Below are positions 9,257 to 18,888 of a DNA stretch of 64,000 nucleotides, piece by piece. The number at the start of each line of letters is the position of its first letter. Position 1 is the stretch's first letter. The notes under the pieces are model-generated. The model was not told the DNA's origin. It saw only the letters and a program-made list of their open reading frames with translations, and made no database searches. Made by a program: the position numbers and the translations under genes. The DNA comes from an uncultured Poribacteria bacterium (GTDB lineage: Bacteria > Poribacteria > WGA-4E > WGA-3G), in the NCBI GenBank assembly GCA_958296135.2, contig CATQHZ020000001.1, forward strand, positions 3,040,001 to 3,104,000, in the 5' to 3' direction.

Positions 9257-9426
9257 GGTTGATGCAAATCCCTTTCTTGGTTGATGCGAATCCCTTTCTT
9301 GTAGGAGGGACCTCCTGGTCCCGATAGGGGAGAGTATCGAGACCAGGAGGTCTCTCCTACCGGGGATTGTCGAGACCGGGAGGTCTCTCCTACCGGGGAT
9401 TATCGAGACCGGGAGGTCTCTCCTAC
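9257..9426. repeat. 22-bp tandem duplication followed by REP cluster (one forward and three reverse GTAGGAGAGACCTCCyGGTCTCG copies, 33-bp period)
   Basis: GGTTGATGCrAATCCCTTTCTT x2 at 9257-9300; GAGACCrGGAGGTCTCTCCTAC x3 at about 9339-9426; same family as at 7935-8137. Confidence 0.9.
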
Positions 9427-9467
9427 AGCAGTTAACTGAATGTTGTTTATTTTAAACGCGATTCGGT

Positions 9468-9497
9468 TTGCAATGCAAGTGAAAAATGTGGTATCCT
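9468..9497 (+). promoter_or_regulatory. Putative sigma70 promoter for the structured element upstream of dndC
   Basis: TTGCAA-18 nt-TATCCT with extended -10 TGTGG. Confidence 0.5.
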
Positions 9498-9504
9498 AAT
9501 TGCA

Positions 9505-9864: not shown

Positions 9865-11271
9865 ATGGGAGCCGAGACCCCTTACAGCATTTTCAATACG
9901 CGCCCGCTTGCCCAGGTCTATCGCGAAATCCAAGAGGTCTATCTTGAAAACGCGCGTCCCTGGGTCATCGGCTACAGCGGCGGGAAAGACTCAACGACAG
10001 CACTCCAACTCGTTTGGTATGCTCTCGCGGAACTGCCGCCCGAAAAACGGAAGTATCCGGTCTACGTCATTTCATCCGATACCCTCGTCGAAACACCGGT
10101 GATTGTCAGTTACATTACCGGCACGCTGGCGCGAATTGAAACGCACGCGCGCGAACAACAGATGCCTTTTCAGACCGAACTCGTTCGGCCGAAAACCGAA
10201 GACACCTTTTGGGTGAACCTCATCGGGAAGGGTTACCCCGCGCCCTATTCACGCTTTCGGTGGTGCACCGACCGGCTCAAGATCCAGCCGGCGAATCGGT
10301 TCATTTTGGACAAAGCCTCGGTGCACGGCGAGGTTATCCTCGTGCTCGGTTCGCGCAAAGGGGAGAGTGCCACCCGCGACCAGGTGTTGAGTCTGCATCG
10401 TCTCAAAGATTCGTTGCTATCAAGGCATACCACGCTGCCGAATGCCTACGTCTATACGCCGATTGTCGATTTTGGATTGAACGATGTGTGGATGTATCTG
10501 CTTAGCAATCCGCCGCCGTGGGGCGGCAATAACAAGCAGCTCGTCACGCTCTACCGAAACGCCAACGCGCAAGGCGAATGTCCGCTCGTCGTTGACGAAA
10601 CCACGCCTTCGTGCGGAAACAGCCGCTTTGGATGCTGGACCTGCACGGTTGTCTCGAAAGACCGGTCTATGGAAGGACTCATTGACAACGGCGAAGAGTG
10701 GATGTTGCCGCTGCTGGAATTCCGGGACTTCCTCGCCGAAACGCAAGACCCGGAACGGAAGGCAGATATTCGGGAGCATAGACGGCGGAATGGAAAGATA
10801 ACGTTCGTGGGAGAGAAACTGATTCGGGGCCCCTATACGCTGGAATTCTGTAAGGCACTGTTGCGGCGGCTTCTTGAAACCCAGCAGCAGGTCCGCGAAG
10901 AAGGACCGGATCCGAACCTCCAACTCATCACGGATGCTGAATTGGAAGAGATTCGTAATATCTGGCGGACTGAACGTTCGGATTGGGAAGATGCCGTACC
11001 GCAGATTTACAAGGAAGTTGTCGGTGAGCACGAGTGGATTGTTGACAACACAACCGCTTTTAACGGCGACGATAAACTGTTGTTGTCCAAAATCTGTGAC
11101 GCAAACGGTATTCCCGTTGAACTCGTAGCAAAACTACTTGATACCGAACGACAGATGGATGGCATGAGCCGTCGCGCGGGAATCCAGTCCCGGATTGATG
11201 CAATCTTTCACGAGGACTGGGATTCAGAGGAAGAAGCTCGCGCCCGTCTAACTAGAAGTAATCAATTATGA
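9865..11271 (+). CDS. dndC: DNA phosphorothioation sulfurtransferase DndC (PAPS-reductase fold, Fe-S)
   Basis: PWVIGYSGGKDST, SDTLVETP, FWVNLIGKGYPAP, RWCTDRLKIQP, GECPLVVD..SCGNSRFGCWTCTVV. Confidence 0.96.
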   Translation: MGAETPYSIFNTRPLAQVYREIQEVYLENARPWVIGYSGGKDSTTALQLVWYALAELPPEKRKYPVYVISSDTLVETPVIVSYITGTLARIETHAREQQMPFQTELVRPKTEDTFWVNLIGKGYPAPYSRFRWCTDRLKIQPANRFILDKASVHGEVILVLGSRKGESATRDQVLSLHRLKDSLLSRHTTLPNAYVYTPIVDFGLNDVWMYLLSNPPPWGGNNKQLVTLYRNANAQGECPLVVDETTPSCGNSRFGCWTCTVVSKDRSMEGLIDNGEEWMLPLLEFRDFLAETQDPERKADIREHRRRNGKITFVGEKLIRGPYTLEFCKALLRRLLETQQQVREEGPDPNLQLITDAELEEIRNIWRTERSDWEDAVPQIYKEVVGEHEWIVDNTTAFNGDDKLLLSKICDANGIPVELVAKLLDTERQMDGMSRRAGIQSRIDAIFHEDWDSEEEARARLTRSNQL

Positions 11272-13271
11272 TTATCCATACCCTCACCGTTAACAACTTT
11301 GGTTTGTTCCGTGGAGAGCATACTCTTCCGTTAACACCGAACGGTACGGAGTCCGTCATCCTTATCGGTGGAATGAACGGTGCTGGCAAAACGACGCTGC
11401 TGGAGGCGGTTCGTCTTTGTCTGTACGGCAAGCGTGCCCTCGGGAATCGGGTTAGCCTCAATGAATATCATGAGTACCTCTCTAAAATGATTCATCGAGA
11501 TTCTCGTTTCGCGGGGAGTTTAAATTACGCTTCTGTGTCACTTGAATTTGAGTATGCCTACGGAGCAGAAAAAAGAGAGTACCGGGTCAAACGTTTTTGG
11601 CAACAGTGCGGCAAAGCAGTTGACGAGGTTTTGACTGTCTCTGAACCTCATCAGTCAAGCAACCATTTTGAGACAGAACATTGGCAGGACTACCTCAATG
11701 GACTCCTCCCAATTGGAGTATCCCAGTTCTTTTTTTTTGATGGCGAGGATATCCAGAAATTGGCGGACGACTCCAGTCACGACGTATTCCTTGCGGATTC
11801 GATTAAGGCGTTGCTCGGGCTAAATCTCGTTGAGCGGCTGCAATCGGATTTGCGAATCTACTCAAACCGGTTGGTTAAGCGAGGAAGTCCGGTCTCGGTG
11901 CAAGAAGAAATTGGGGCGGTGGAGTCAGTAGTCACCTCTCTTGAAGTGTCTCTTTCAAATGTGACTGCAGAAAAGGAATCTCTACAGTCGCAGATTGAGG
12001 AGTTATCAGCAGCAATTACCCAACAAGAAGAGCGGATTGCAGCCGAAGGCGGAAGTTACGCCCAAAGTCGCGAAAACCTGAAACTTCAGCGAGAGCAACT
12101 GCAGAACGAGATTGAGGAATTAGAAGACGAGATTCGCGTATTTTGTGACGAATTGTTTCCGTTCGCTTTAGCACCGGGACTTCTCGAGGAATTGGCGGAA
12201 CGGCTTCTTAAAGAGATGGAGTTGGATAAGTGGGAAGCGACAAACAACGCGTTAACTGAGCATAACACTGCGGTGCTTGAAACGCTGGGATCGGGCAATT
12301 TTTGGGAAGGGGTTTCCCTATCGGGGGAACAAATCGCGGATATTCGCGCCAAACTTGCTCCGCTGCTCAAGACACAATTTGAGCGTCCCGAATCGTTGCG
12401 CGGTTTCACAAAACTCAGGGACCGGTCTCCATCGGAACGGCAGCAACTGTTAAAATGGATTGATGCCTGTCTCAATGAAGTTCCGCGGCAAGCGAAGAAG
12501 TTGTTCAATGCACTGGAAAAAGCACAAACCGAACTACAGCAGGTGGAACAGGCTCTTCAGAGAGTGCCATCCGACGAAGTTTTGAAGCCGCTAATCGAAA
12601 AACACTCGGAGTTGAATCAAACGCTGGGGCAACTGCAAAAGCAGGAGCAAGATACAGAAAAATTCGTGCTCTCCTTGACACGTCAATTGGCAGAAACAGA
12701 GCGCAGATTAGAAAGGTTGCGTCAAGCCAAACGGTTGGACGAAGCGCACCGCGAACGCCAAAAACGGGTGAGCGATGTGCAATCGGTGCTCTCTAAGTAC
12801 ACGACAAAACTCACCGGGACAAAAATTTTGACTTTGGGAAACACTATTGTAGAGGGTTTTAACCAACTCTCTCACAAGCGGAATAGAATCAAACGGGTTG
12901 AGATACATCCGCGGACGTTTGCGGTAACGCTCTATGATACCTACAATCGTCCTGTGGCCAAGGAAGAATTATCAGCGGGTGAAAAGCAGATTTACACAAC
13001 CGCGCTCTTATGGGGGTTGGCGAAGACCTCGGGCAAGGTATTGCCGATGATTCTTGACACGCCTCTAGGACGTTTAGATAGTGACCATCGCCGTCTGCTG
13101 ATTGAGCGGTATTTTCCGTATGTCAGTCATCAAGTGGTTTTGCTTTCAACGGATACGGAAGTTGACGAGCATCTCTACGAGCTGCTGACCCCTCACATTT
13201 CGCATGCGTTCCGGTTGGTGTATCAGCATACAGAAGTTCACACCACTATTGAGAATGGCTATTTCGGATAA
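11268..13271 (+). CDS. dndD: DNA sulfur modification SMC-like ATPase DndD
   Basis: Walker A GMNGAGKTT, FFFFDGE, long coiled coil, LSAGEKQ signature, DTPLGRLDSDHR, SHQVVLLSTDTE; overlaps dndC stop. Confidence 0.95.
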   Translation: MIIHTLTVNNFGLFRGEHTLPLTPNGTESVILIGGMNGAGKTTLLEAVRLCLYGKRALGNRVSLNEYHEYLSKMIHRDSRFAGSLNYASVSLEFEYAYGAEKREYRVKRFWQQCGKAVDEVLTVSEPHQSSNHFETEHWQDYLNGLLPIGVSQFFFFDGEDIQKLADDSSHDVFLADSIKALLGLNLVERLQSDLRIYSNRLVKRGSPVSVQEEIGAVESVVTSLEVSLSNVTAEKESLQSQIEELSAAITQQEERIAAEGGSYAQSRENLKLQREQLQNEIEELEDEIRVFCDELFPFALAPGLLEELAERLLKEMELDKWEATNNALTEHNTAVLETLGSGNFWEGVSLSGEQIADIRAKLAPLLKTQFERPESLRGFTKLRDRSPSERQQLLKWIDACLNEVPRQAKKLFNALEKAQTELQQVEQALQRVPSDEVLKPLIEKHSELNQTLGQLQKQEQDTEKFVLSLTRQLAETERRLERLRQAKRLDEAHRERQKRVSDVQSVLSKYTTKLTGTKILTLGNTIVEGFNQLSHKRNRIKRVEIHPRTFAVTLYDTYNRPVAKEELSAGEKQIYTTALLWGLAKTSGKVLPMILDTPLGRLDSDHRRLLIERYFPYVSHQVVLLSTDTEVDEHLYELLTPHISHAFRLVYQHTEVHTTIENGYFG

Positions 13272-13276
13272 GCATT

Positions 13277-13684
13277 ATGCAATTCAACCGAATTCGCCTT
13301 TCTGAGGATTCCCGCATCAAGTTGGGAATTTTAAAGACGCGCACGGGTTTGCTACCCAACGTTCTCTGTCGAATTGGGTTGATGCTTTCGTTAACAAACC
13401 CGAGCGAACCAGAACTTGATGCTGATGCAACGGATGGTTCCGAGTTTAACCGCTACACGCTTACGGGTGAGTGGGATCCACTGATTGTAGCACTCTTGGA
13501 GGAAAGGGTTCTCTCCAAAAGGCTTTGTGCGGACAATCAAGAATTTGGCGCGGATAGGGAAGAGTTTGACAATGAAAAACTTGTTAAATACTTTCGAGCG
13601 CACCTGAATCACGGAGTGCGTATGCTTCACGGCCGCGTGAGGGGATTGGAGGATTTAGCGAACCTCCTAATGCCTGTGCCTTAA
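13277..13684 (+). CDS. dndE: DNA sulfur modification protein DndE
   Basis: RIRLS..LKTRTGLLPNVLCRIGLMLSL, EFNRYTLTGEWD, FRAHLNHG; position after dndD. Confidence 0.92.
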   Translation: MQFNRIRLSEDSRIKLGILKTRTGLLPNVLCRIGLMLSLTNPSEPELDADATDGSEFNRYTLTGEWDPLIVALLEERVLSKRLCADNQEFGADREEFDNEKLVKYFRAHLNHGVRMLHGRVRGLEDLANLLMPVP

Positions 13685-13784
13685 TATTTCGTCAAACGAG
13701 TCCGGTAGGCGCGCTTCGTAAGCATGCTCCCTTGGATTGACGCGCGCTTACAAAGTGGATCTACTAGTATTAAGTCTCTCTAAC

Positions 13785-14810
13785 CTATTTCCCCCATTCC
13801 CGCTCGTACTGACTCGTTGAAGGCCGAGCCTCAATTCCCAATTCTCGTTTCAATGCAAGGGCAAGGTCTACACCATGCCCACCCCGGCTGTTATCCGTGA
13901 TAACCTTCTTGGCTCCAGTAGCACGTACATATTCAAGAGTCCCTATATAGTCAGCATGGTCTGAAAGTGATACGCAAAATGCCTTCTCTGAATATTCTAC
14001 GACTGGATCCCCGAAGCGGCTCATGTATGCACTCAACACGATTCTGGAAGTAGCTTCACCCTTGTCAGTTGGGAACCTCTCTCTGGTTCCATAAAGACGA
14101 ATGTACCTTCCTTCGCTGCAAGCGAGTTTTGCTTCTGCTGTCTCAGCATTAAGGACCTTTGTTAGGCTATATCCATGCTGCTGATACACTCTTAATTCAT
14201 CACAGAGCCGTGCGCTTGCAATGATCGGGAATTTGACTGCATCATCTAGACAAGAAGCTGCTCTTTGTAGGGTACCGCGGTGAGATAAAATTAGAACCGG
14301 GCCAACTTTTATCCGCTCAACAACTAACTCTATAAAGCGGCCATTTGCCTCTTCTTGGGTGAATTTTCGGACTGATTCAGGAGATCCGTAGGTGCTATCC
14401 AATACGAGTTCCTCAACCTCTATAACCTCGCCGAGAGGCCAAGCGAAATCCCCTGAGTATCCGCACCTTCCTCCATCAGGTAACGTTACTTCAACCTGCA
14501 CAGAACCTAGCATGTGTCCGTTATCCAGCAACCGGATCTGACATTCAGCTAGATGAATAGGATGCCCTAATGAAACAGCCTTGACGTTAGCGCGATACGG
14601 GATGTCTGCATTGTATTCAGCTATCAACAGGTCGCGAGTGGGCTGAGTCATAATAATATGCTTCTGATGCCCTTTGCTCCTATCAAAGCCATCCATGTGA
14701 TCTTCATGGACATGGGTTTGTACGCGAATCGGATATTCGTGAACGAAACCGTCACAAGTTACCACATCACCTAGTGTAACCGCACCCGATCCAGAAATGT
14801 CAATCCTCAT
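13785..14810 (-). CDS. Metallo-beta-lactamase / beta-CASP family nuclease
   Basis: THVHEDH (HxHxDH), GHMLGS, YSGDF, LVLDSTYG, SDHADY: the motif set of SNM1/Artemis-like and ligase-associated MBL exonucleases. Confidence 0.85.
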   Translation of the reverse strand: MRIDISGSGAVTLGDVVTCDGFVHEYPIRVQTHVHEDHMDGFDRSKGHQKHIIMTQPTRDLLIAEYNADIPYRANVKAVSLGHPIHLAECQIRLLDNGHMLGSVQVEVTLPDGGRCGYSGDFAWPLGEVIEVEELVLDSTYGSPESVRKFTQEEANGRFIELVVERIKVGPVLILSHRGTLQRAASCLDDAVKFPIIASARLCDELRVYQQHGYSLTKVLNAETAEAKLACSEGRYIRLYGTRERFPTDKGEATSRIVLSAYMSRFGDPVVEYSEKAFCVSLSDHADYIGTLEYVRATGAKKVITDNSRGGHGVDLALALKRELGIEARPSTSQYEREWGK

Positions 14811-14815
14811 ACAAC

Positions 14816-15526
14816 CTAATCCTTGCTAGTTAATTCTCGTGTTAGATATTCCGTGATTGCTTGTTCAAAGCCCTCAGGAAGTGACATAATCGCGGCATGA
14901 AGCCGATCGTCTCCAATTAGAAGAAAATATCCATCACCAAGTTTGGATCCCAATCGCGGAATATTAGGACTGTATCGATCTAGTGCAGATTGCAGAAGAT
15001 TATCACGTTCTAGTTGTGAAATCTGCCTGAGACTATCTTTCAACCTTTCAGATTGGAGACTTCCGACAATCACATGCCTTCTCTCAATGACTGGACGTTG
15101 ATTCAAGACAGCCTTCATGCACTCTTTGATGGAGTTTCCCGAGCGCTGCCGGATTTGAACAACCTGCATGATCTCGGATTTGCTAAACCGATTCTCCAAC
15201 GCGGCTGTTGCTAATGCAAGTTGCTCTTGCTCGTCCTCAAGTCGGGCAATCTCAGAACCGGCAGTAAAGGACAAGGTTGCCGGATCAGACCCCCATCCGA
15301 TGAGTTGTTGCACGTCAGGAGGTAGCCGGAGAAGGCGGATGAAACGCCCGATTATAGATGAATCCTCAAGGAGGAGCCGGGCAGCAATCTCCCGCCTTTT
15401 TTCACCTGCCTCTAATGCTTTGTCCATAAGTTTCGCGACTTCAACCGGCGAAAGCGGCCGCGCCGATTTATGCGTTCCTACGGAAAGAATAAGCTGACGT
15501 ACTTCGGACGACGACAACCCTCTCAC
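14816..15526 (-). CDS. ParB-like HTH/helical-domain protein lacking the N-terminal CTPase domain
   Basis: RPLSPVEVAK..GEKRREIAARL..IGRFIRLLRLPPDVQQLI..LSFTAGSEIARL..EQLALA aligns by eye with the central ParB/Spo0J HTH region; GTGA overlap with the upstream gene. Confidence 0.65.
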   Translation of the reverse strand: MRGLSSSEVRQLILSVGTHKSARPLSPVEVAKLMDKALEAGEKRREIAARLLLEDSSIIGRFIRLLRLPPDVQQLIGWGSDPATLSFTAGSEIARLEDEQEQLALATAALENRFSKSEIMQVVQIRQRSGNSIKECMKAVLNQRPVIERRHVIVGSLQSERLKDSLRQISQLERDNLLQSALDRYSPNIPRLGSKLGDGYFLLIGDDRLHAAIMSLPEGFEQAITEYLTRELTSKD

Positions 15527-16356
15527 ACTATACCTCTGTCAGGATCGTAGCCGCCGCTTGATAATCCGCTTTCAATCAGTTGGGCAGCTGCCTCGTCTAC
15601 GGTAGTGCCTTCGTCCTTCGCAAATTGCCCTAACGAGTTGCGAATTTGCTTTCCAAGGGTCACAGTAATTTGCGTAACCTTTTCGCCGCTTTTCGCTCGT
15701 TCTACAAGTTCATCCACAGAGGCATCGGAATCATCTCTTAGTTTCTTGCGGAGATTCTCTTGCTGCGCGCCGCTCATCTGTGACATTTCTTTGGCGAGTT
15801 TCACGGAATCTTGCGGGTCGGGATCGCCCTCGGTTGCCAGGGCATCCTGGGCACGAAGGGCAGCCTTCAAGGTGGCGTCTCCCTTTTCAACAACCCTTTT
15901 GAGTTCAGGAATTAGACGGTCATATTTGACATATTCGCGCACTTTTTCGTAGGGTAGTCCGGTTTCGTCCGCGACCTCTTTCATTGACGCGTAGTGCTTA
16001 TACAGGTATGTGCAAACGTCAATCAGGTCCTTCCGGTTTAGGTTGCGACGGACAAGGTTTTCGGTTACCGATAATACCTTCGCTTGGATTTCTTCCACGC
16101 GGTCGTCAAGGATACCGGCTTTAATCGTTTTTTTACCAAGTCTCTGGTGTGCCAAAAAACGCCTTTGGCCCAGTATAATTTCATACTTTTCACCAGATTC
16201 CAAAGGAGCGACCAGGATAGGTTCCAAGAGTCCTACTTTGGCAATGCTGTCTGCGATCTCATCAATCTCTTTCCCAACATCGCTTAAGCGGACTTGGCTC
16301 GTTCCGATTACTAGATCTTCCAAAGGAATATCTTTAAATTCGACAATATTTGCCAT
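15523..16356 (-). CDS. ParB/RepB/Spo0J-family protein (CTPase-fold, HTH, putative C-terminal ribbon-helix-helix)
   Basis: ATG at 16356 with GGAGG RBS; SQVR, IADSIAKVGLLEPILV, YEIILGQRRFLA (GxRR), ENLVRRNL; C-terminal QITVTLGKQIRNSLGQFAKDEGTTVDEAAAQLIESGL is RHH-like. Confidence 0.88.
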   Translation of the reverse strand: MANIVEFKDIPLEDLVIGTSQVRLSDVGKEIDEIADSIAKVGLLEPILVAPLESGEKYEIILGQRRFLAHQRLGKKTIKAGILDDRVEEIQAKVLSVTENLVRRNLNRKDLIDVCTYLYKHYASMKEVADETGLPYEKVREYVKYDRLIPELKRVVEKGDATLKAALRAQDALATEGDPDPQDSVKLAKEMSQMSGAQQENLRKKLRDDSDASVDELVERAKSGEKVTQITVTLGKQIRNSLGQFAKDEGTTVDEAAAQLIESGLSSGGYDPDRGIV

Positions 16357-16432
16357 CTTAGTTTCCTCCGCATTGAGACACAGTTGATACTCCACTAGGG
16401 GGTCTCGTTTATGTCCCCCAGATATTTTCGAT

Positions 16433-16476
16433 TGTTGACATAAAGACTGCAACACAGGAACTTTGTGATGTCAACA
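16433..16476. promoter_or_regulatory. Inverted repeat between RNA copy B and the parB-like start (operator, attenuator or processing hairpin)
   Basis: TGTTGACAT(16433-16441)...ATGTCAACA(16468-16476) with inner AAAG/CTTT pairing. Confidence 0.45.
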
Positions 16477-16498
16477 TCTTTGTAAATAAACTATTGTC

Positions 16499-16675
16499 GG
16501 AGTTGCAGTGCGGATTCGCGAGTCTCCGGCCCCACAAGTTGACTGCCTCCGCCTTTGAGTTCTCGGTGTTGACGCGACAGCAACGACGCGTCTTTGTGAA
16601 CGAAGCGCGACGCGCGCTCGGTTCTGTGCAGTCCGAGGGCCGCCTCTTCCGCTGCGACCGGCCCGGCGCAATTCC
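16499..16675 (-). ncRNA. Candidate structured ncRNA, tandem copy B
   Basis: Own promoter at 16684-16712. Ends pair (GGAATTGCG/TGCAACTCC); nested stems CGGCCCT/GGGGCCG, GACTGC/GCAGTC, GAAC-GAGCGCG/CGCGCTT-GTTC, GACGCG/CGCGTC. Confidence 0.65.
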
Positions 16676-16683
16676 TCTTAAAT

Positions 16684-16712
16684 AGCATACCACAAAACGC
16701 GAAAATTTGCAA
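16684..16712 (-). promoter_or_regulatory. sigma70-type promoter of RNA copy B
   Basis: Minus strand TTGCAA-17 nt-TATGCT with TGTGG extended -10. Confidence 0.7.
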
Positions 16713-16744
16713 ACAAAAAATATTAGAGAATTTTCTGTGGAGTC

Positions 16745-16911
16745 GGAGTTGCAGTGCGGATTCGCGAGTCTCCGGCCCCACAAGTTGACTGCCTCCGCCT
16801 TTGAGTTCTCGATGTTGACGCGACAGCAACGACGCGTCCTTGTGAACCATGGTTCTGCGCAGTCCGAAGGGCCGCCTTTCCCGCTGCGACCGGCACGAAC
16901 CCGCGCAATTC
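16745..16911 (-). ncRNA. Candidate structured ncRNA, tandem copy A
   Basis: Direct repeat of copy B at 246-bp period (106 nt with 2 mismatches). 11-bp stem GCGGGTTCGTG/CGCGAATCCGC; the variable hairpin is shortened to GAACCATGGTTC. Confidence 0.65.
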
Positions 16912-16920
16912 GTCGTGGAT

Positions 16921-16949
16921 AGAATACCACAGAAAACGAAATTTTGCAA
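16921..16949 (-). promoter_or_regulatory. sigma70-type promoter of RNA copy A
   Basis: Minus strand TTGCAA-17 nt-TATTCT with TGTGG extended -10. Confidence 0.7.
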
Positions 16950-17134
16950 ACAAAAAACGTTCGCGAAATTTTCGTGGATACGGTATCAACGCTTTCATTT
17001 TAGAAAAATGCCAATTTGTCTCAACCACTTTTTTGCGCAAAGCGATGCCTTAACATCGGTTTTTGAGGATTTCGGCACAAATTAACCAAACCTTCTCTCA
17101 ATTTTACCACATTTCCAAAAAAAACAAAATGTTC

Positions 17135-17163
17135 TTGACAAATTTATCAGAAAATAATAGAAT
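17135..17163 (+). promoter_or_regulatory. sigma70 promoter for the secreted paralog pair
   Basis: TTGACA-17 nt-TAGAAT. Confidence 0.65.
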
Positions 17164-17244
17164 ACCTAGATTGACACGCTGTTCGCGCCAAATGCGCGCA
17201 ACAGAAATTATGAATATCTCTAACCAACAGGAGGAATCTTGTTT

Positions 17245-18078
17245 ATGAGACTCTTTATTACCGTTGCTTGTGTGCTGTGTGCTGCAGCTATCATGCTTTG
17301 CGCACCCACAGCCGATGCAGCGAAGAAAATTGATGTCTTCGTTTACACGGAGACAGTGCAGTGGATCGGCCAAGCACAGGCACAAGACGCAGCCGACATC
17401 CTGATCAAGGAAATCGAAGGCAAACAGGGAATCGGCGAAGTTGTCAACGACCCGGCGAAAGCGATTGAAGCCTGGACGAAGAAACATACCGTCGACAAGG
17501 GCAATCACATCATTGTGATGTTCGGGGATTTCCCCAAGGAAATTTACCCGAATGGTAAAGGCGACATCAAGAAGGGCTCCGTCGCTGAGGAGTTCCTCGA
17601 TGCCGGCAATACCTACTCGAACAGTGCCGACTACTTTTTCTGGGGACAAGGAGGCCGGAATGAAAAGGAAGGACTCCAAAACATGATGGATATCCCCGCA
17701 ATCGTTCAGTGGGATGACGACACCCCGATGAAGGTGACGAAGGAAGGAAAGGCACTGACTCCGTCATTGGACGATTACAACACAGACCGGCCCTTCCACC
17801 TCAATGAGCTGGAAGGCGATTGGGAATTGGAAGTCGCCTTCGCTACCGAAACCGGCAAGGGGGATAACGCAACACGCTGCGATCCTTGTATCGTCCGGAA
17901 TACGAAGACGGATGCACGCCTTATCCAGGTCTACCAGACTAACAATCAGGCTGATCCGAAGGGTGAAGTCATCGCGGAGATCATCCTGAACTACTATCTT
18001 GAAGTCACGGGGGCCCTCGAGGTCGACCCGCAGGATAAACTGCCTACACGTTGGGCAGACATCAAAACTCGGAGGTAA
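17245..18078 (+). CDS. Secreted hypothetical protein with C-terminal VDPQDKLPTRWADIK tail
   Basis: AGGAGG RBS; signal peptide ending ADA; paralog of the next gene. Confidence 0.8.
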   Translation: MRLFITVACVLCAAAIMLCAPTADAAKKIDVFVYTETVQWIGQAQAQDAADILIKEIEGKQGIGEVVNDPAKAIEAWTKKHTVDKGNHIIVMFGDFPKEIYPNGKGDIKKGSVAEEFLDAGNTYSNSADYFFWGQGGRNEKEGLQNMMDIPAIVQWDDDTPMKVTKEGKALTPSLDDYNTDRPFHLNELEGDWELEVAFATETGKGDNATRCDPCIVRNTKTDARLIQVYQTNNQADPKGEVIAEIILNYYLEVTGALEVDPQDKLPTRWADIKTRR

Positions 18079-18084
18079 TAATTG

Positions 18085-18888
18085 ATGCGAAACGTTTGTA
18101 TCCTTCTAATCGCCATGGTTTTCATGGCACTCCCCTTGGCTCCGCTGTTCGCAGCAGGCGAGGTGGCAATCTACACCGGCACCACGCAGTGGATCGGCAA
18201 AGCCCCCGCGGACGAACAGGCGCAGATCTGCGTTGACATGCTTGACGCTGCCGGCATCTTGAACACGTGGTTCGATAGCGATGGCGATATGGATGCCCTC
18301 GCCGAGTGGATGGATAGTGTCACCGGCGACCAGGGATTGGACATCTGTGTGCTTTACGGCGATTTGCCGCCGCCCGTCTATCCGGAGGGCAACTCACAGA
18401 CCGATGGCTCCGTCGGCGAAACCTTCATTGAGACTACCGATGGCGATACGTTCATCAACCACGCCGACTATATGTTTTGGGGACTCGGCGGCCGAAATGA
18501 GGAAGGCGGCTTGCAGAACATGATGGACATTGAAGGCATTGTGATGTGGGACGATGATACCGCGATGACCGTGACAGACGAAGGCAAGACCATCTCGCCG
18601 AGTCTGACCGATTTTGCGTCAGATCGCCCGTTCCACGTCGATGAACTTGATGGCGATTGGGAAGTTGAGGTATCTTTGGCACAGAGTGATGACGGCACCC
18701 GTGCGGATCCGATTATCGTTCGCGATGGCAACCTCGGCAGACTGATTCCGGTCATCCAAACGAACGGAGGCGATGAGCCGAAAGGCGCGGTCGCGGCGGA
18801 GATCATCATCTGGCTGATGTCCACCACGCCTGTTGAACCGGCTGGAAAGTTGTCCACAACGTGGGCAGACTTGAAAGCAGTCCGATGA
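18085..18888 (+). CDS. Secreted hypothetical protein, paralog of the upstream gene, C-terminal VEPAGKLSTTWADLK tail
   Basis: Shared blocks ADYxFWG.GGRNE..GLQNMMDI, WDDDT.M.VT.EGK, DRPFH, DP.IVR; very acidic. Confidence 0.8.
   Translation: MRNVCILLIAMVFMALPLAPLFAAGEVAIYTGTTQWIGKAPADEQAQICVDMLDAAGILNTWFDSDGDMDALAEWMDSVTGDQGLDICVLYGDLPPPVYPEGNSQTDGSVGETFIETTDGDTFINHADYMFWGLGGRNEEGGLQNMMDIEGIVMWDDDTAMTVTDEGKTISPSLTDFASDRPFHVDELDGDWEVEVSLAQSDDGTRADPIIVRDGNLGRLIPVIQTNGGDEPKGAVAAEIIIWLMSTTPVEPAGKLSTTWADLKAVR

Follow-up and report, generated by a model that had tools for sequence, protein, structure and literature searches.

A phosphorothioate-linked ParB and beta-CASP nuclease gene trio behind a predicted lineage-specific leader in an uncultured poribacterium

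What do two ParB-like proteins and a beta-CASP nuclease do beside the phosphorothioate (PT)-writing genes dndCDE, and do the two RNA-like units directly upstream belong with them? The question is raised by a locus in a 64,000-nucleotide stretch of DNA from an uncultured Poribacteria bacterium (hereafter the window), which an initial annotation, made from the letters alone, had read as one new RNA-associated defence or DNA-surveillance system. Here, we compare the proteins, their neighbourhoods and the upstream units with related loci. We hold with moderate confidence that two separate things are joined in the window, namely a PT-coupled restriction or surveillance module without its SNF2 helicase, and a lineage-specific cis-regulatory leader of defence operons.

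Three coupled genes and their proteins

In outline the original description of the locus stands: two tandem promoter-plus-RNA units of ~235 nt precede three tightly coupled minus-strand genes that converge on dndE of the PT-writing dndCDE cluster (9865..13684, plus strand), whose genes were matched by both Pfam and PADLOC (Table 1). Genes 1 and 2 overlap by 4 bp (15523-15526), and genes 2 and 3 are separated by 5 bp (14811-14815). The ORF of gene 1 is open over 15523-16455, those of genes 2 and 3 being as tabulated; its start is most likely the ATG at 16356 (277 aa) rather than the GTG at 16455, because ‘MANIVEF’ stands at residue 34, GGAGG lies just upstream and 25 of 25 homologues start there. 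Among the flanking ORFs scanned there was no match to ParA, Rep or an integrase, again as first reported. A role of the ParB gene in segregation was rejected, given this lack of a ParA-type match and a context of PT modification and a nuclease. The AT-richness ascribed to the coding block is real with respect to the outer flanks (GC 0.43-0.52 over the trio against 0.55-0.61) but is not peculiar to it, dndCDE being equally low.

Table 1 Features of the locus, in window coordinates
Feature	Position	Strand	Basis
Leader unit 1: promoter-like site ~16955-16921, 5' domain D1 16849-16912, 3' domain D4 16726-16810	16726..16966	-	
Leader unit 2: promoter-like site, D1 16618-16675, middle hairpin, hairpin D3, D4 16482-16564 plus U-rich tail	16482..16729	-	
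Gene 1, ParB-family protein, 277 aa: ParB_N NTPase-type domain, HTH, C-terminal tail	15523..16356	-	Pfam, TIGR and PDB matches, alignment
Gene 2, HTH_ParB protein, 236 aa: ParB/Noc-type DNA-binding domain plus C-terminal alpha/beta domain	14816..15526	-	Pfam, structure model, structure match
Gene 3, beta-CASP metallo-beta-lactamase-fold nuclease, 341 aa, full set of metal-ligand motifs	13785..14810	-	Motifs, model, Foldseek
dndE	13277-13684	+	Pfam and PADLOC, DndE 6.6e-33
dndD	11268-13271	+	Pfam and PADLOC, DndD 1.8e-212
dndC	9865-11271	+	Pfam and PADLOC, DndC 7e-202
Promoter-like site of leader type (TTTGCAA...TGTGGTATCCT), ~370 nt upstream of dndC	9467..9500	+	Sequence

The three protein assignments were borne out. 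Gene 1 matches ParB_N in Pfam (9.7e-13), TIGR00180 (63.9 bits, above the cut-off of 58.45 bits) and Spo0J/ParB/Noc structures in the PDB (E 7e-11 to 3e-6). An arginine-patch box (GxxRxxA) is present together with an ENLxR box. Across 26 aligned ParB sequences GQRR and ENxxR do not vary, and residues G63, Q64, R65, R66, A69, E99 and N100 are all invariant; the GxRR motif is intact. These motifs suggest putative CTP binding, hydrolysis and clamp closure on DNA. The C-terminal tail gives an RHH-like impression in its sequence, and a PDB sequence search with it was uninformative. Gene 2 matches HTH_ParB (6.2e-8 over residues 25-124), and its model (pLDDT 94.5) has a ParB/Noc DNA-binding domain at about residues 1-130, matching 6y93 with a TMt of 0.84, followed by an alpha/beta domain for which no relative was recognised. 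Neither ParB-like gene matches DndB, whether as PF14072 or as the PADLOC model.

Gene 3 has no Pfam family match, carries HVHEDH and combines the metallo-beta-lactamase (MBL) motifs (HxHxDH, a later His and Asp) with a beta-CASP insertion domain. Its metal-ligand set is complete, with H33, H35, D37, H38, H99, D121 and H285 invariant in 19 aligned MBL sequences, and its AlphaFold model (pLDDT 85) matches the beta-CASP nucleases CPSF73, SNM1A, Artemis and TTHA0252 (Foldseek E 1.5e-19 to 1e-14, TMq 0.62-0.73). The best family-level sequence match is TIGR04122, a ligase-associated DNA-damage-response exonuclease (3.4e-17), at 62 bits far under that family's cut-off of 325 bits.

A conserved module beside phosphorothioate writers

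The nuclease family is large, with 671 matches at E<=1e-3 and 161 clusters at 50% identity with E<=1e-30. We examined 87 homologous loci, 7 from genomes and 80 from metagenomes, across which the conserved partners are an SNF2 helicase, HTH_ParB, the nuclease and PT genes. At the 13 loci with at least 7.5 kb of upstream and 4.5 kb of downstream sequence, a PT gene (dnd or ssp) is present in 12, SNF2 in 11, ParB_N in 12 and HTH_ParB in 12; with shorter flanks (at least 3.1 kb and 1.5 kb, n = 31) the counts are 27, 29, 30 and 30. The module occurs in both orientations relative to dndCDE, with SNF2 on either side of the other three genes, and genes 2 and 3 can be fused: HTH_ParB–nuclease proteins of ~582 aa with PF17762 make up 9 of 120 among the matches listed and are found also at loci L077 and L078.

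The linkage extends to more than one type of PT writer. DndD or DndE was seen at 37 loci, and Ssp genes take the place of dnd at three (L099, L105 and L120), the first of which has SspA, SspB, SspC and SspD. A true DndB gene accompanies the module ParB gene at several loci (for example L066, L087, L104, L106, L109 and L143), so that the latter is not a DndB substitute.

By gene content and homology, the trio represents, without its helicase, a conserved set of four genes (SNF2 helicase, ParB, HTH-ParB and beta-CASP nuclease) that is apparently widespread and undescribed. The earlier view of the trio as a complete system of its own was thus right that the genes stay together, and with PT genes, across distant lineages, and that no named system covers them (none in PADLOC, where this had been predicted, nor in Pfam, NCBIfam or the searched literature); it overlooked the helicase, the fourth gene of the conserved unit.

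The best reading of the module, by analogy with DndI and SspE, is a PT-coupled restriction or DNA-surveillance partner, which probably cuts foreign DNA. The ParB protein would bind and clamp DNA in a nucleotide-dependent manner, the HTH-ParB protein would tether the beta-CASP nuclease to this clamp, the SNF2 motor, if present, would power translocation, and PT marks on host DNA would block or abort cutting.

A different and, in our judgement, unlikely reading makes the module a PT-maintenance, repair or regulation machine instead of a defence effector, one that processes damage at PT sites, removes misplaced PT or limits modification, in which the beta-CASP enzyme would serve as repair exonuclease while ParB and SNF2 scan the DNA. 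The TIGR04122 match fits repair as well as restriction, the nearest folds of comparable size include the repair nucleases SNM1A and Artemis (TMt 0.65-0.70), and tight linkage to PT writers is equally expected of a maintenance factor. Moreover, DndB, itself of the ParB superfamily, regulates PT levels according to PMC10853773. However, the swapping of Dnd and Ssp writers, together with presence in just 11 of 176 poribacterial genomes, is the pattern of a restriction partner, and with DndB often alongside, a second regulator seems redundant. In the sister genome G002, PbeA and PbeC, of a known PT-linked module, fill the equivalent slot beside dndCDE behind the orthologous leader, and the window module stands behind a leader otherwise seen ahead of RM and defence genes.

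A predicted leader family ahead of defence-type genes

The two upstream units are direct repeats, with 106 nt at 98% identity and a mean column identity of 87% overall. Each follows a TTGCAA-N17-TGnTATnCT promoter-like site, as had been proposed, although this site was read by eye and is absent from the consensus scanner list. We built covariance models of the 3' domain (R1) and the 5' domain (R2). Unit 1 (nhmmer 2.3e-84) scores 67.8 bits with R1 and 55 bits with R2, and, since unit 2 comes directly after it, has no GAGUU/U-rich tail of the usual kind; unit 2 scores 77.9 and 43.4 bits, 5 nt being deleted from the GGGUUCGUG box of its D1 and its middle hairpin being 15 nt longer than that of unit 1. 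Folding energies were unremarkable against shuffles (z = -0.58 and +0.31), and no Rfam 15 covariance model matched at E<=1 over window positions 13000-18500. The same promoter type occurs upstream of dndC (Table 1) with neither an R1 nor an R2 match behind it, an observation that speaks against the leader reading.

The family is confined almost wholly to one poribacterial genus, with two matches in a neighbouring genus. R1 matches number 11 in the window genome (G000), 15 in G002 and 9 in G001, and elsewhere in 101 family genomes there were two weak ones, both within coding-looking sequence; R2 matches (13, 17, 11 and 2) fall in 4 of 111 genomes. Depending on the model, a genome of the genus thus holds 9-17 copies, some with the 5' domain alone. 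In the 3' domain the helices are paired in 95.5% of cells with double changes in 6 of 15 pairs, and in the 5' domain in 88.6% with 15 doubly changed cells; none of 500 shuffles was as high for either and slid controls gave 27-47% and 31-55%, respectively, all of them statistics that are inflated because the 3'-domain alignment had been made by fitting to the model and the copies come as paralogues from three related genomes. G-U pairs are frequent, so the structure is strand-specific, which points to RNA. The long 3' hairpin has an internal loop, GCAGUCAAC, that is invariant over its 9 nt in 29 copies with variable flanks, and most copies have a U-rich tract (consensus GAGUUUAUU) after it, with no canonical terminator in the scanner list. 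All copies examined have the orientation of the downstream ORF and lie 3-243 nt upstream of it, so that the features of a cis leader, a conserved structure that covaries and a constant orientation and place upstream of genes, are found together.

The genes behind the leader, though unrelated, are mostly of one functional class. The first downstream gene has an RM- or defence-type domain at 8 of 8 other loci of G000 and at 15 of 17 loci of G001 and G002, a total of 23 among the 25 cases tested, which come from three genomes of a single genus, and the genes include RM, FRG-TPR, HerA, Tiamat-like, Pbe and Csm6. Without a recognisable defence domain are 2 of the 17 in G001 and G002 and 1 of 3 behind D1-only copies in G000. 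The element is hence probably a cis-regulatory leader that the operons of a defence regulon share. The window units would represent a lineage-specific promoter joined to a structured 5' leader of ~170-200 nt, most likely a cis-acting regulatory element that many unrelated defence operons have in common, and they may work as attenuators, with the invariant loop in the 3' hairpin and the U-rich tract after it. Such a regulon would be made up of heterogeneous anti-phage and RM systems, and the trio would be wired into it, genus-wide, through its leader.

Alternatively, the unit could be a portable DNA promoter cassette or homology patch for the exchange of defence cassettes, or a source of stand-alone small RNAs, and not a cis sensor. 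We consider this rather improbable, although G000 and G002 have orthologous leaders (84-86% identity) at the same spot beside dndCDE with different cassettes behind them, copies are in tandem at two G000 loci, unit 1 in the window lacks a gene of its own and the 5' domain can stand alone. A pure DNA patch would not need helices whose pairing is preserved by compensatory and G-U changes and on the sense strand alone, and the fixed internal loop amid variable flanks also speaks against this reading; terminal repeats or target duplications were not noticed in an unsystematic look.

The window copy of the module could be crippled, because the SNF2 gene kept in 11 of the 13 well-flanked loci is missing from the window and has no orthologue in G000, in which the best matches are ~1100-aa proteins at 25-35% identity. 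Recombination at the leader might even have left a non-functional remnant: the syntenic poribacterial locus L066 shares the flanks and has GIY-YIG, DndB and SNF2 genes in place of the two leaders. We nevertheless find a remnant improbable, given that none of the three ORFs is shortened (277, 236 and 341 aa, comparable to homologues) and every invariant residue is kept, that homologues at 91-92% identity are present in other samples, that the trio has a predicted promoter and leader, and that at least one other locus without SNF2 (L099, flanked by 10 kb on both sides) adjoins a complete sspABCD.

The earlier proposal that the RNAs are integral to the trio, as scaffold, antitoxin or nuclease substrate, can hardly be right: the beta-CASP fold does include RNases (CPSF73, RNase J and Cas14 of type VII CRISPR) and the RNAs lie in tandem directly upstream, but neither RNA domain is present at any of the 87 other nuclease-homologue loci, the same leader precedes at least 25 unrelated operons of defence type, and G001 and G002, with their 9 and 15 copies, have no nuclease homologue. 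By this distribution the RNA is not part of the trio, and the reading as a stand-alone RNA–protein system is contradicted. Of the earlier expectations for the neighbourhood, conserved linkage was found and a conserved upstream RNA was not, an outcome that had been named in advance as counting against the proposal. In type III toxin–antitoxin systems of the ToxIN kind, short tandem RNA repeats belong specifically to the adjacent toxin, which processes them. This candidate was also rejected, as the units here are ~235 nt long with promoter-like sites of their own and the RNA is found before unrelated genes and not at the homologous loci.

Comparison with known systems

The leader resembles the T-box and the RAT/BglG-type antitermination leaders in that one structured element precedes many operons of one functional class, and differs from known regulon leaders in having no Rfam match. 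Gene 3 shares its fold and metal-ligand motifs with SNM1A, Artemis, CPSF73, RNase J, TTHA0252 and Cas14 of type VII CRISPR, from which it is set apart by 15-19% identity, a minimal form of ~340 aa and a dedicated PT-linked context. With chromosomal ParB/Spo0J, Noc and KorB, which are CTP-dependent clamps, gene 1 shares the N-terminal domain with its GxxRR and ENxxR boxes and the HTH, and gene 2 the ParB/Noc DNA-binding domain; unlike them, the trio comes without ParA, a recognised parS or the ParB C-terminal dimerisation domain.

Among PT-associated systems, DndFGH and PbeABCD, partners of dndBCDE, are likewise multi-gene, contain a helicase or ATPase and lie beside dndCDE. They have no sequence relationship to the module (the PADLOC Dnd and Pbe models match only dndC, dndD and dndE in the window), and the parts of PMC10853773 used here describe no ParB or beta-CASP component for either.

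The closest parallels are IscS-DndBCDE-DndI and SspABCD-SspE, in which a ParB-superfamily nucleotide-binding part and a nuclease stand beside PT writers, and whose DndI and SspE partners, like the module, are found with either Dnd or Ssp writers. As described in PMC11662687, both are validated precedents for a ParB-type NTPase and nuclease coupled to PT status, an N-terminal DUF262 (DGQQR) domain and a DUF1524 HNH nuclease being joined in one protein; the NTPase of DndI is stimulated by PT, which also frees the enzyme from self DNA. The trio had no match to DUF262, DUF1524, SspE or Orf5 in Pfam and PADLOC models. In contrast to DndI and SspE, the NTPase-type domain of the module is of the canonical ParB_N/Spo0J-Noc type instead of DUF262, its nuclease is beta-CASP instead of DUF1524/HNH, and its functions are divided over three proteins, joined at most loci by an SNF2 helicase.

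Three coupled genes beside dndCDE

The three minus-strand genes lie head to tail, genes 1 and 2 overlapping by 4 bp and genes 2 and 3 lying 5 bp apart, the tight coupling described in the initial annotation, and dndC, dndD and dndE are confirmed beside them, on the plus strand and convergent on gene 3 (see table). Gene 1 probably starts at ATG 16356, giving a 277-aa protein, because MANIVEF lies at residue 34 of the ORF, GGAGG is found just 5' of it and 25 homologs begin there. Its product matches ParB_N (9.7e-13), scores above the family cut-off for TIGR00180 and has Spo0J, ParB and Noc as closest solved structures (E 7e-11 to 3e-6). The GxRR motif is intact as reported, with both the GQRR box and ENxxR invariant in 26 aligned rows. 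For the 50-aa tail, suggested to be RHH-like, a PDB sequence search matched designed repeat proteins only.

Gene 2 had been read as the ParB HTH region alone, joined to a C-domain without known relative, and this reading holds. The protein matches HTH_ParB (6.2e-8), and its AlphaFold model (pLDDT 94.5) matches the Noc/ParB DNA-binding domain over approximately 110–130 residues (6y93, TMt 0.84); with the whole model in Foldseek, the N-terminal ParB domain is the only part matched. No relative was found for the C-terminal alpha/beta domain (approximately residues 150–236), and its best ESM Atlas score of 0.84 is uninformative. A co-fold prediction of the ParB_N and HTH_ParB proteins (score 0.21, mark 0.32) is evidence in neither direction. 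The gene 3 product has no Pfam match. Its metal ligands are complete, as first noted, with an HVHEDH motif and with H33, H35, D37, H38, H99, D121 and H285 invariant in 19 rows. The predicted structure (pLDDT 85) is that of a beta-CASP metallo-beta-lactamase-fold nuclease, with Foldseek matches to archaeal and eukaryotic CPSF73, SNM1A, Artemis, TTHA0252 and Cas14 (E 1.5e-19 to 1e-14); 'putative mRNA 3-end processing factor' is the sole name carried by the cluster members examined.

PADLOC gave no meaningful match for the trio, in agreement with its description as no named system. The flanking genes are ordinary ones, for a GFO/IDH/MocA oxidoreductase, an FGE-sulfatase, a PQQ/BamB-like protein and an M16 peptidase. 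As the oxidoreductase, sulfatase and peptidase are of housekeeping type and the scanned flanks hold no ParA, Rep or integrase match, readings as a partition system, already dismissed in the annotation, or as a mobile element are out. The claimed AT-richness is seen (GC 0.43–0.57 against 0.55–0.61 in the outer flanks), but it belongs to an island that includes dndCDE, not to the trio alone.

Three short elements were also noted. Downstream of leader unit 2 and ahead of the ParB start lies a perfect inverted repeat, which might serve the ParB or HTH protein as an operator or be the -35 box of a third promoter; it is not comparable across loci because an SNF2 gene abuts the ParB gene elsewhere. 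Within the 5' UTR of gene 1 is a hairpin that, on the plus strand, is followed by a T-rich run and was classed as terminator-like in a terminator scan; it could stop antisense read-through from dndCDE. The main chromosome has 79 copies of the core of the REP-like elements upstream of dndC, some of them near other leader copies.

Features of the window and of related loci, with positions (L numbers denote fetched loci; G000 is the window's own genome, G002 a sister genome)
Feature	Position	Strand	Description
Gene 1	window 15523-16455	minus	ORF call, ParB family
Gene 2	window 14816-15526	minus	ORF call, HTH_ParB
Gene 3	window 13785-14810	minus	ORF call, beta-CASP nuclease
Leader units 1 and 2	window 16482-16966		two direct-repeat units
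Inverted repeat	window 16434-16475	minus	8-bp arms GTTGACAT ... ATGTCAAC, 26 nt apart
5' UTR hairpin	window 16398-16419		GGGGG...CCCCC
REP-like elements	window 9335-9425		three tandem palindromic elements, core GAGACCnGGAGGTCTC, starts 9339, 9372, 9405
PF14072 (DndB-family) gene	G000, C1:1503457-1504494 (L071)		sole above-cut-off match in G000
Leader array	G000:C1:2037000-2051000 (L019)		14 kb, four leader copies
Insertion in module	L064:600-1700		transposase-like ORF
HATPase_c_3 + ~370-aa pair	L061 9191-11924		also in L062 and L063
HATPase_c_3 + ~370-aa pair	L060:9914-12656		G002

A module recurring beside phosphorothioation genes

Relatives of the nuclease number 671 at E<=1e-3 in a word-indexed search; searched exhaustively, the family comprises 655 representative clusters at E<=1e-3, 337 at 1e-10 and 161 at 1e-30. 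Nine of the 120 matches listed are of approximately 582 aa and carry PF17762, and thus are fusions of genes 2 and 3. We compared 87 loci, seven from genomes (six 'Candidatus Poribacteria' MAGs and one Gaiellaceae MAG) and 80 from metagenomes, with ORFs labeled by jackhmmer profiles for which the window and L066, a syntenic poribacterial locus, supplied the seeds. The recurrent unit consists of an SNF2 helicase (~460 aa), ParB_N, HTH_ParB and the nuclease; the helicase gene sometimes lies 3' of the nuclease gene, and phosphorothioate (PT) genes adjoin the module in either orientation. The SNF2 protein consists of the helicase core alone and resembles the corresponding parts of ZorD and DpdE.

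Co-occurrence was counted in loci chosen by flank length alone, whatever their content. With flanks of at least 7.5 kb upstream and 4.5 kb downstream (n = 13), a PT gene is present in 12 loci, SNF2 in 11, and ParB_N and HTH_ParB in 12 each; with at least 3.1 kb and 1.5 kb (n = 31) the corresponding counts are 27, 29, 30 and 30. The exceptions are L123, which has the nuclease alone, L099, which is without SNF2, and L077, L078 and L136, with no PT gene within reach. DndD or DndE is found in 37 loci and Ssp genes instead in three (L099, L105 and L120), L099 carrying SspA, SspB, SspC and SspD (E 1e-95 to 0); several loci contain a true DndB gene as well as the module. In the phylum the module is patchy, present in 11 of 176 genomes (one by a partial match) and 6 of 31 genera. 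One poribacterial genome has an insertion between the HTH_ParB and nuclease genes (L064).

The trio therefore stays together and linked to dnd, or to ssp, as expected if it forms a system. The RNA expected upstream is missing: neither RNA domain occurs in any of the 87 other nuclease-homolog loci, which argues against the RNAs being a component of the trio's system. Of the original proposal, the observation is confirmed and the PT-linked ParB-nuclease system supported, but the RNA as its component is not. Gene order, coupling, the fusion, linkage to two kinds of PT writer, the folds and motif conservation are observed features of the module, and in our judgment it is very probably tied functionally to PT systems.

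The window lacks the SNF2 gene, and its genome has no ortholog, the best matches being 25–35% identical within proteins of ~1100 aa. Its dndCDE has no adjacent DndB; the genome's PF14072 gene is 1.5 Mb away, at approximately 8 kb from a leader-TmtA-like locus. At L066 both flanking genes are as in the window, and GIY-YIG, DndB and SNF2 genes occupy the position of the window's two leaders. The nuclease is absent from two sister genomes of the same genus, G001 and G002. The same slot beside dndCDE in G002 holds one cassette of a leader followed by PbeA-PbeC-(160 aa) and another of two leaders followed by genes for an HATPase_c_3 protein and a 370-aa protein. No other leaders are as close to the window's units as these (84–86% identity), which makes the leader a resident of the genus and the cassettes behind it exchangeable. 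The pair formed by the HATPase_c_3 protein (~535 aa) and the ~370-aa protein without family match recurs beside the PT island in different poribacterial genera and could be another undescribed defense pair.

The putative leader RNA and the genes behind it

The RNA-like units upstream of the trio had been described as tandem and self-promoted. They are direct repeats with a mean column identity of 87% and 98% identity over the last 106 nt; the promoter-like site before each, TTGCAA-N17-TGnTATnCT, was read by eye and is unlisted in a consensus scan. The sole large difference between them is a 15-nt insertion lengthening a hairpin (GAACC-AU-GGUUC versus GAAC-CGAGCGCG...CGCGCUUCG-GUUC). Rfam gave no match at E<=1 in window 13000-18500, and the single-sequence folding energy of both units is no better than that of shuffles. 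A leader peptide, for which a GGAGG-N8-TTG inside D4 was considered, is rejected: frame and length vary among copies, and one copy reads TTG-TAG.

BLAST and nhmmer recovered further, diverged copies in the window's genome. The copies share the order promoter, 5' domain (GGGUUCGUG ... CACUCGGACC), variable middle, GACGCG...CGCGUC hairpin and then CAAAACC, and a long 3' hairpin, AACUC-[loop]-GGAG-[GCAGUCAAC]-UUGCAG-(variable tip)-CUGCAA-CUCC-[loop]-GAGUU, then UAUUCG. RNAalifold on 11 full-length copies recovered the 3' stem alone because the middle is poorly aligned. In a 32-row alignment fitted to the covariance model of the 3' domain (R1), 95.5% of cells pair, with double changes in 6 of 15 pairs; none of 500 shuffles reaches these values and slid controls pair at 27–47%. 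Over the first 29 rows, conservation of the 9-nt internal loop GCAGUCAAC does not fall below 90% at any position. For the 5' domain, a MAFFT alignment of 28 copies that we selected by hand gave two helices in which 88.6% of cells pair and 15 cells carry double changes (0 of 500 shuffles as high; slid controls 31–55%). In both domains the copies are paralogs in three related genomes, and the shuffle counts are not probabilities. The many G-U pairs in both domains place the structure on the sense strand only, as expected for RNA.

Among 101 genomes of the family, R1 finds 11 copies in the window's genome, 15 in G002 and 9 in G001, all in one genus; the only others, two weak matches in genus g5 (L032 and L033), were discounted as false, with coding-looking sequence upstream and no distal stem. 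The 5'-domain model (R2) finds 13, 17 and 11 copies in the same genomes and 2 in G004, of a neighboring genus, with no match at E<=1e-4 in the other 107 of 111 genomes searched. Upstream of TmtA-like genes in G002 (L047) and G001 (L051), two tandem 5' domains precede the 3' domain, and the family is thus modular. A literature search found no description of a shared defense leader; on comparative evidence, this one is an RNA family not described before and restricted to one lineage.

The copies examined are co-oriented with the downstream ORF and lie 3–243 nt upstream of it. Besides the window, eight R1 loci in its genome each precede genes of restriction-modification or defense-type families, a label that is our reading of family names: FRG-TPR-Mrr_N; HSDR_N, then FRG-TPR; FRG-TPR; HerA; a Sacsin-domain protein (PADLOC TmtA, 1e-103); an HSDR_N_2 coiled-coil protein; a cytosine-5 methylase (DrmMII-like) with an HATPase protein; and an AAA_15/AAA_21 ATPase (NsnB/AriA-like). 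Behind copies with the 5' domain only lie genes for a type-IIG-like methylase, a Csm6 HEPN protein and one protein without match. The first ORF has comparable matches in 15 of 17 leader loci of G001 and G002 (none in the other two), namely FRG-TPR (3), TmtA/Sacsin (4), PLD-SNF2 (2), Dcm, a type I methylase, a weak MTase_I/HSDR_N, an Orf5/GmrSD-like type IV enzyme, HATPase_c_3 and PbeA. The family, its helices and this gene association are matters of observation.

The leader is likewise in tandem at a second locus of the window's genome. In the L019 array each of the leader copies stands before an FRG-TPR(-Mrr_N) or HSDR_N gene and has an additional TTGACA-type promoter upstream; the array looks like a locally amplified cassette family.

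Proposed mechanism and known PT partners

The explanation we favor, with some reserve, combines a PT-coupled module with a defense-regulon leader. The module would be a restriction or surveillance arm of PT systems, in which ParB would act as a nucleotide-gated DNA clamp, the HTH-ParB protein as an adaptor carrying the beta-CASP nuclease and SNF2 as a translocase. PT might block hydrolysis or trigger release, by analogy with DndI and SspE, whose ParB-superfamily NTPase is stimulated by PT (PMC11662687). The leader would be a cis-acting control element with its invariant loop read by a protein or ligand, and may be an attenuator, because a U-rich tract lies behind the long 3' hairpin in most copies.

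A more far-reaching joint reading, a new class of PT-reading restriction machine together with an infection-responsive leader switch of the defense arsenal, seems to us doubtful. Here a CTP-gated ParB sliding clamp would patrol DNA and license the di-metal beta-CASP nuclease unless PT is met, and the SNF2-ParB-HTHParB-betaCASP machine would work with Dnd and Ssp writers alike. The 9–17 leader copies per genome in one poribacterial genus would form a riboregulatory switch, a riboswitch or protein-dependent attenuator acting via the invariant loop, that turns unrelated defense systems on together. A single structured leader before RM, Pbe, Tiamat-like, HerA, FRG-TPR, Csm6 and other genes would be one of few examples of a bacterial immune arsenal co-regulated at the RNA level, and would make the joint switching-on of heterogeneous defense systems testable.

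PT immunity has a handful of known restriction partners: DndFGH, DndI, PbeABCD, SspE and SspFGH. To our knowledge, no partner has been identified for many of the dnd and ssp clusters. The Dnd-linked nucleases named in the accessible part of a Dnd reappraisal are HKD-SF2 helicase, HNH-SAD(SRA), REase-HARE, URI, HEPN and PIN (PMC10853773), and MBL, lactamase, beta-CASP and CPSF do not occur in its main text as available. MBL does not occur in a BREX survey (PMC12839542), nor do the passages of it that we consulted mention a metallo-beta-lactamase. Our literature search found no SNF2-ParB-MBL module beside dnd or ssp; the neighborhood supplements of PMC10853773, outside this search, might contain one. 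On comparative evidence, we file the module as a new addition to the PT-coupled restriction partners. As such, this widespread and closely PT-linked module would be a mechanistically different partner, in which a true ParB-type clamp is combined with an SNF2 motor and a nuclease of the beta-CASP type, and would bring the study of CTP clamps together with that of epigenetic self/non-self discrimination.
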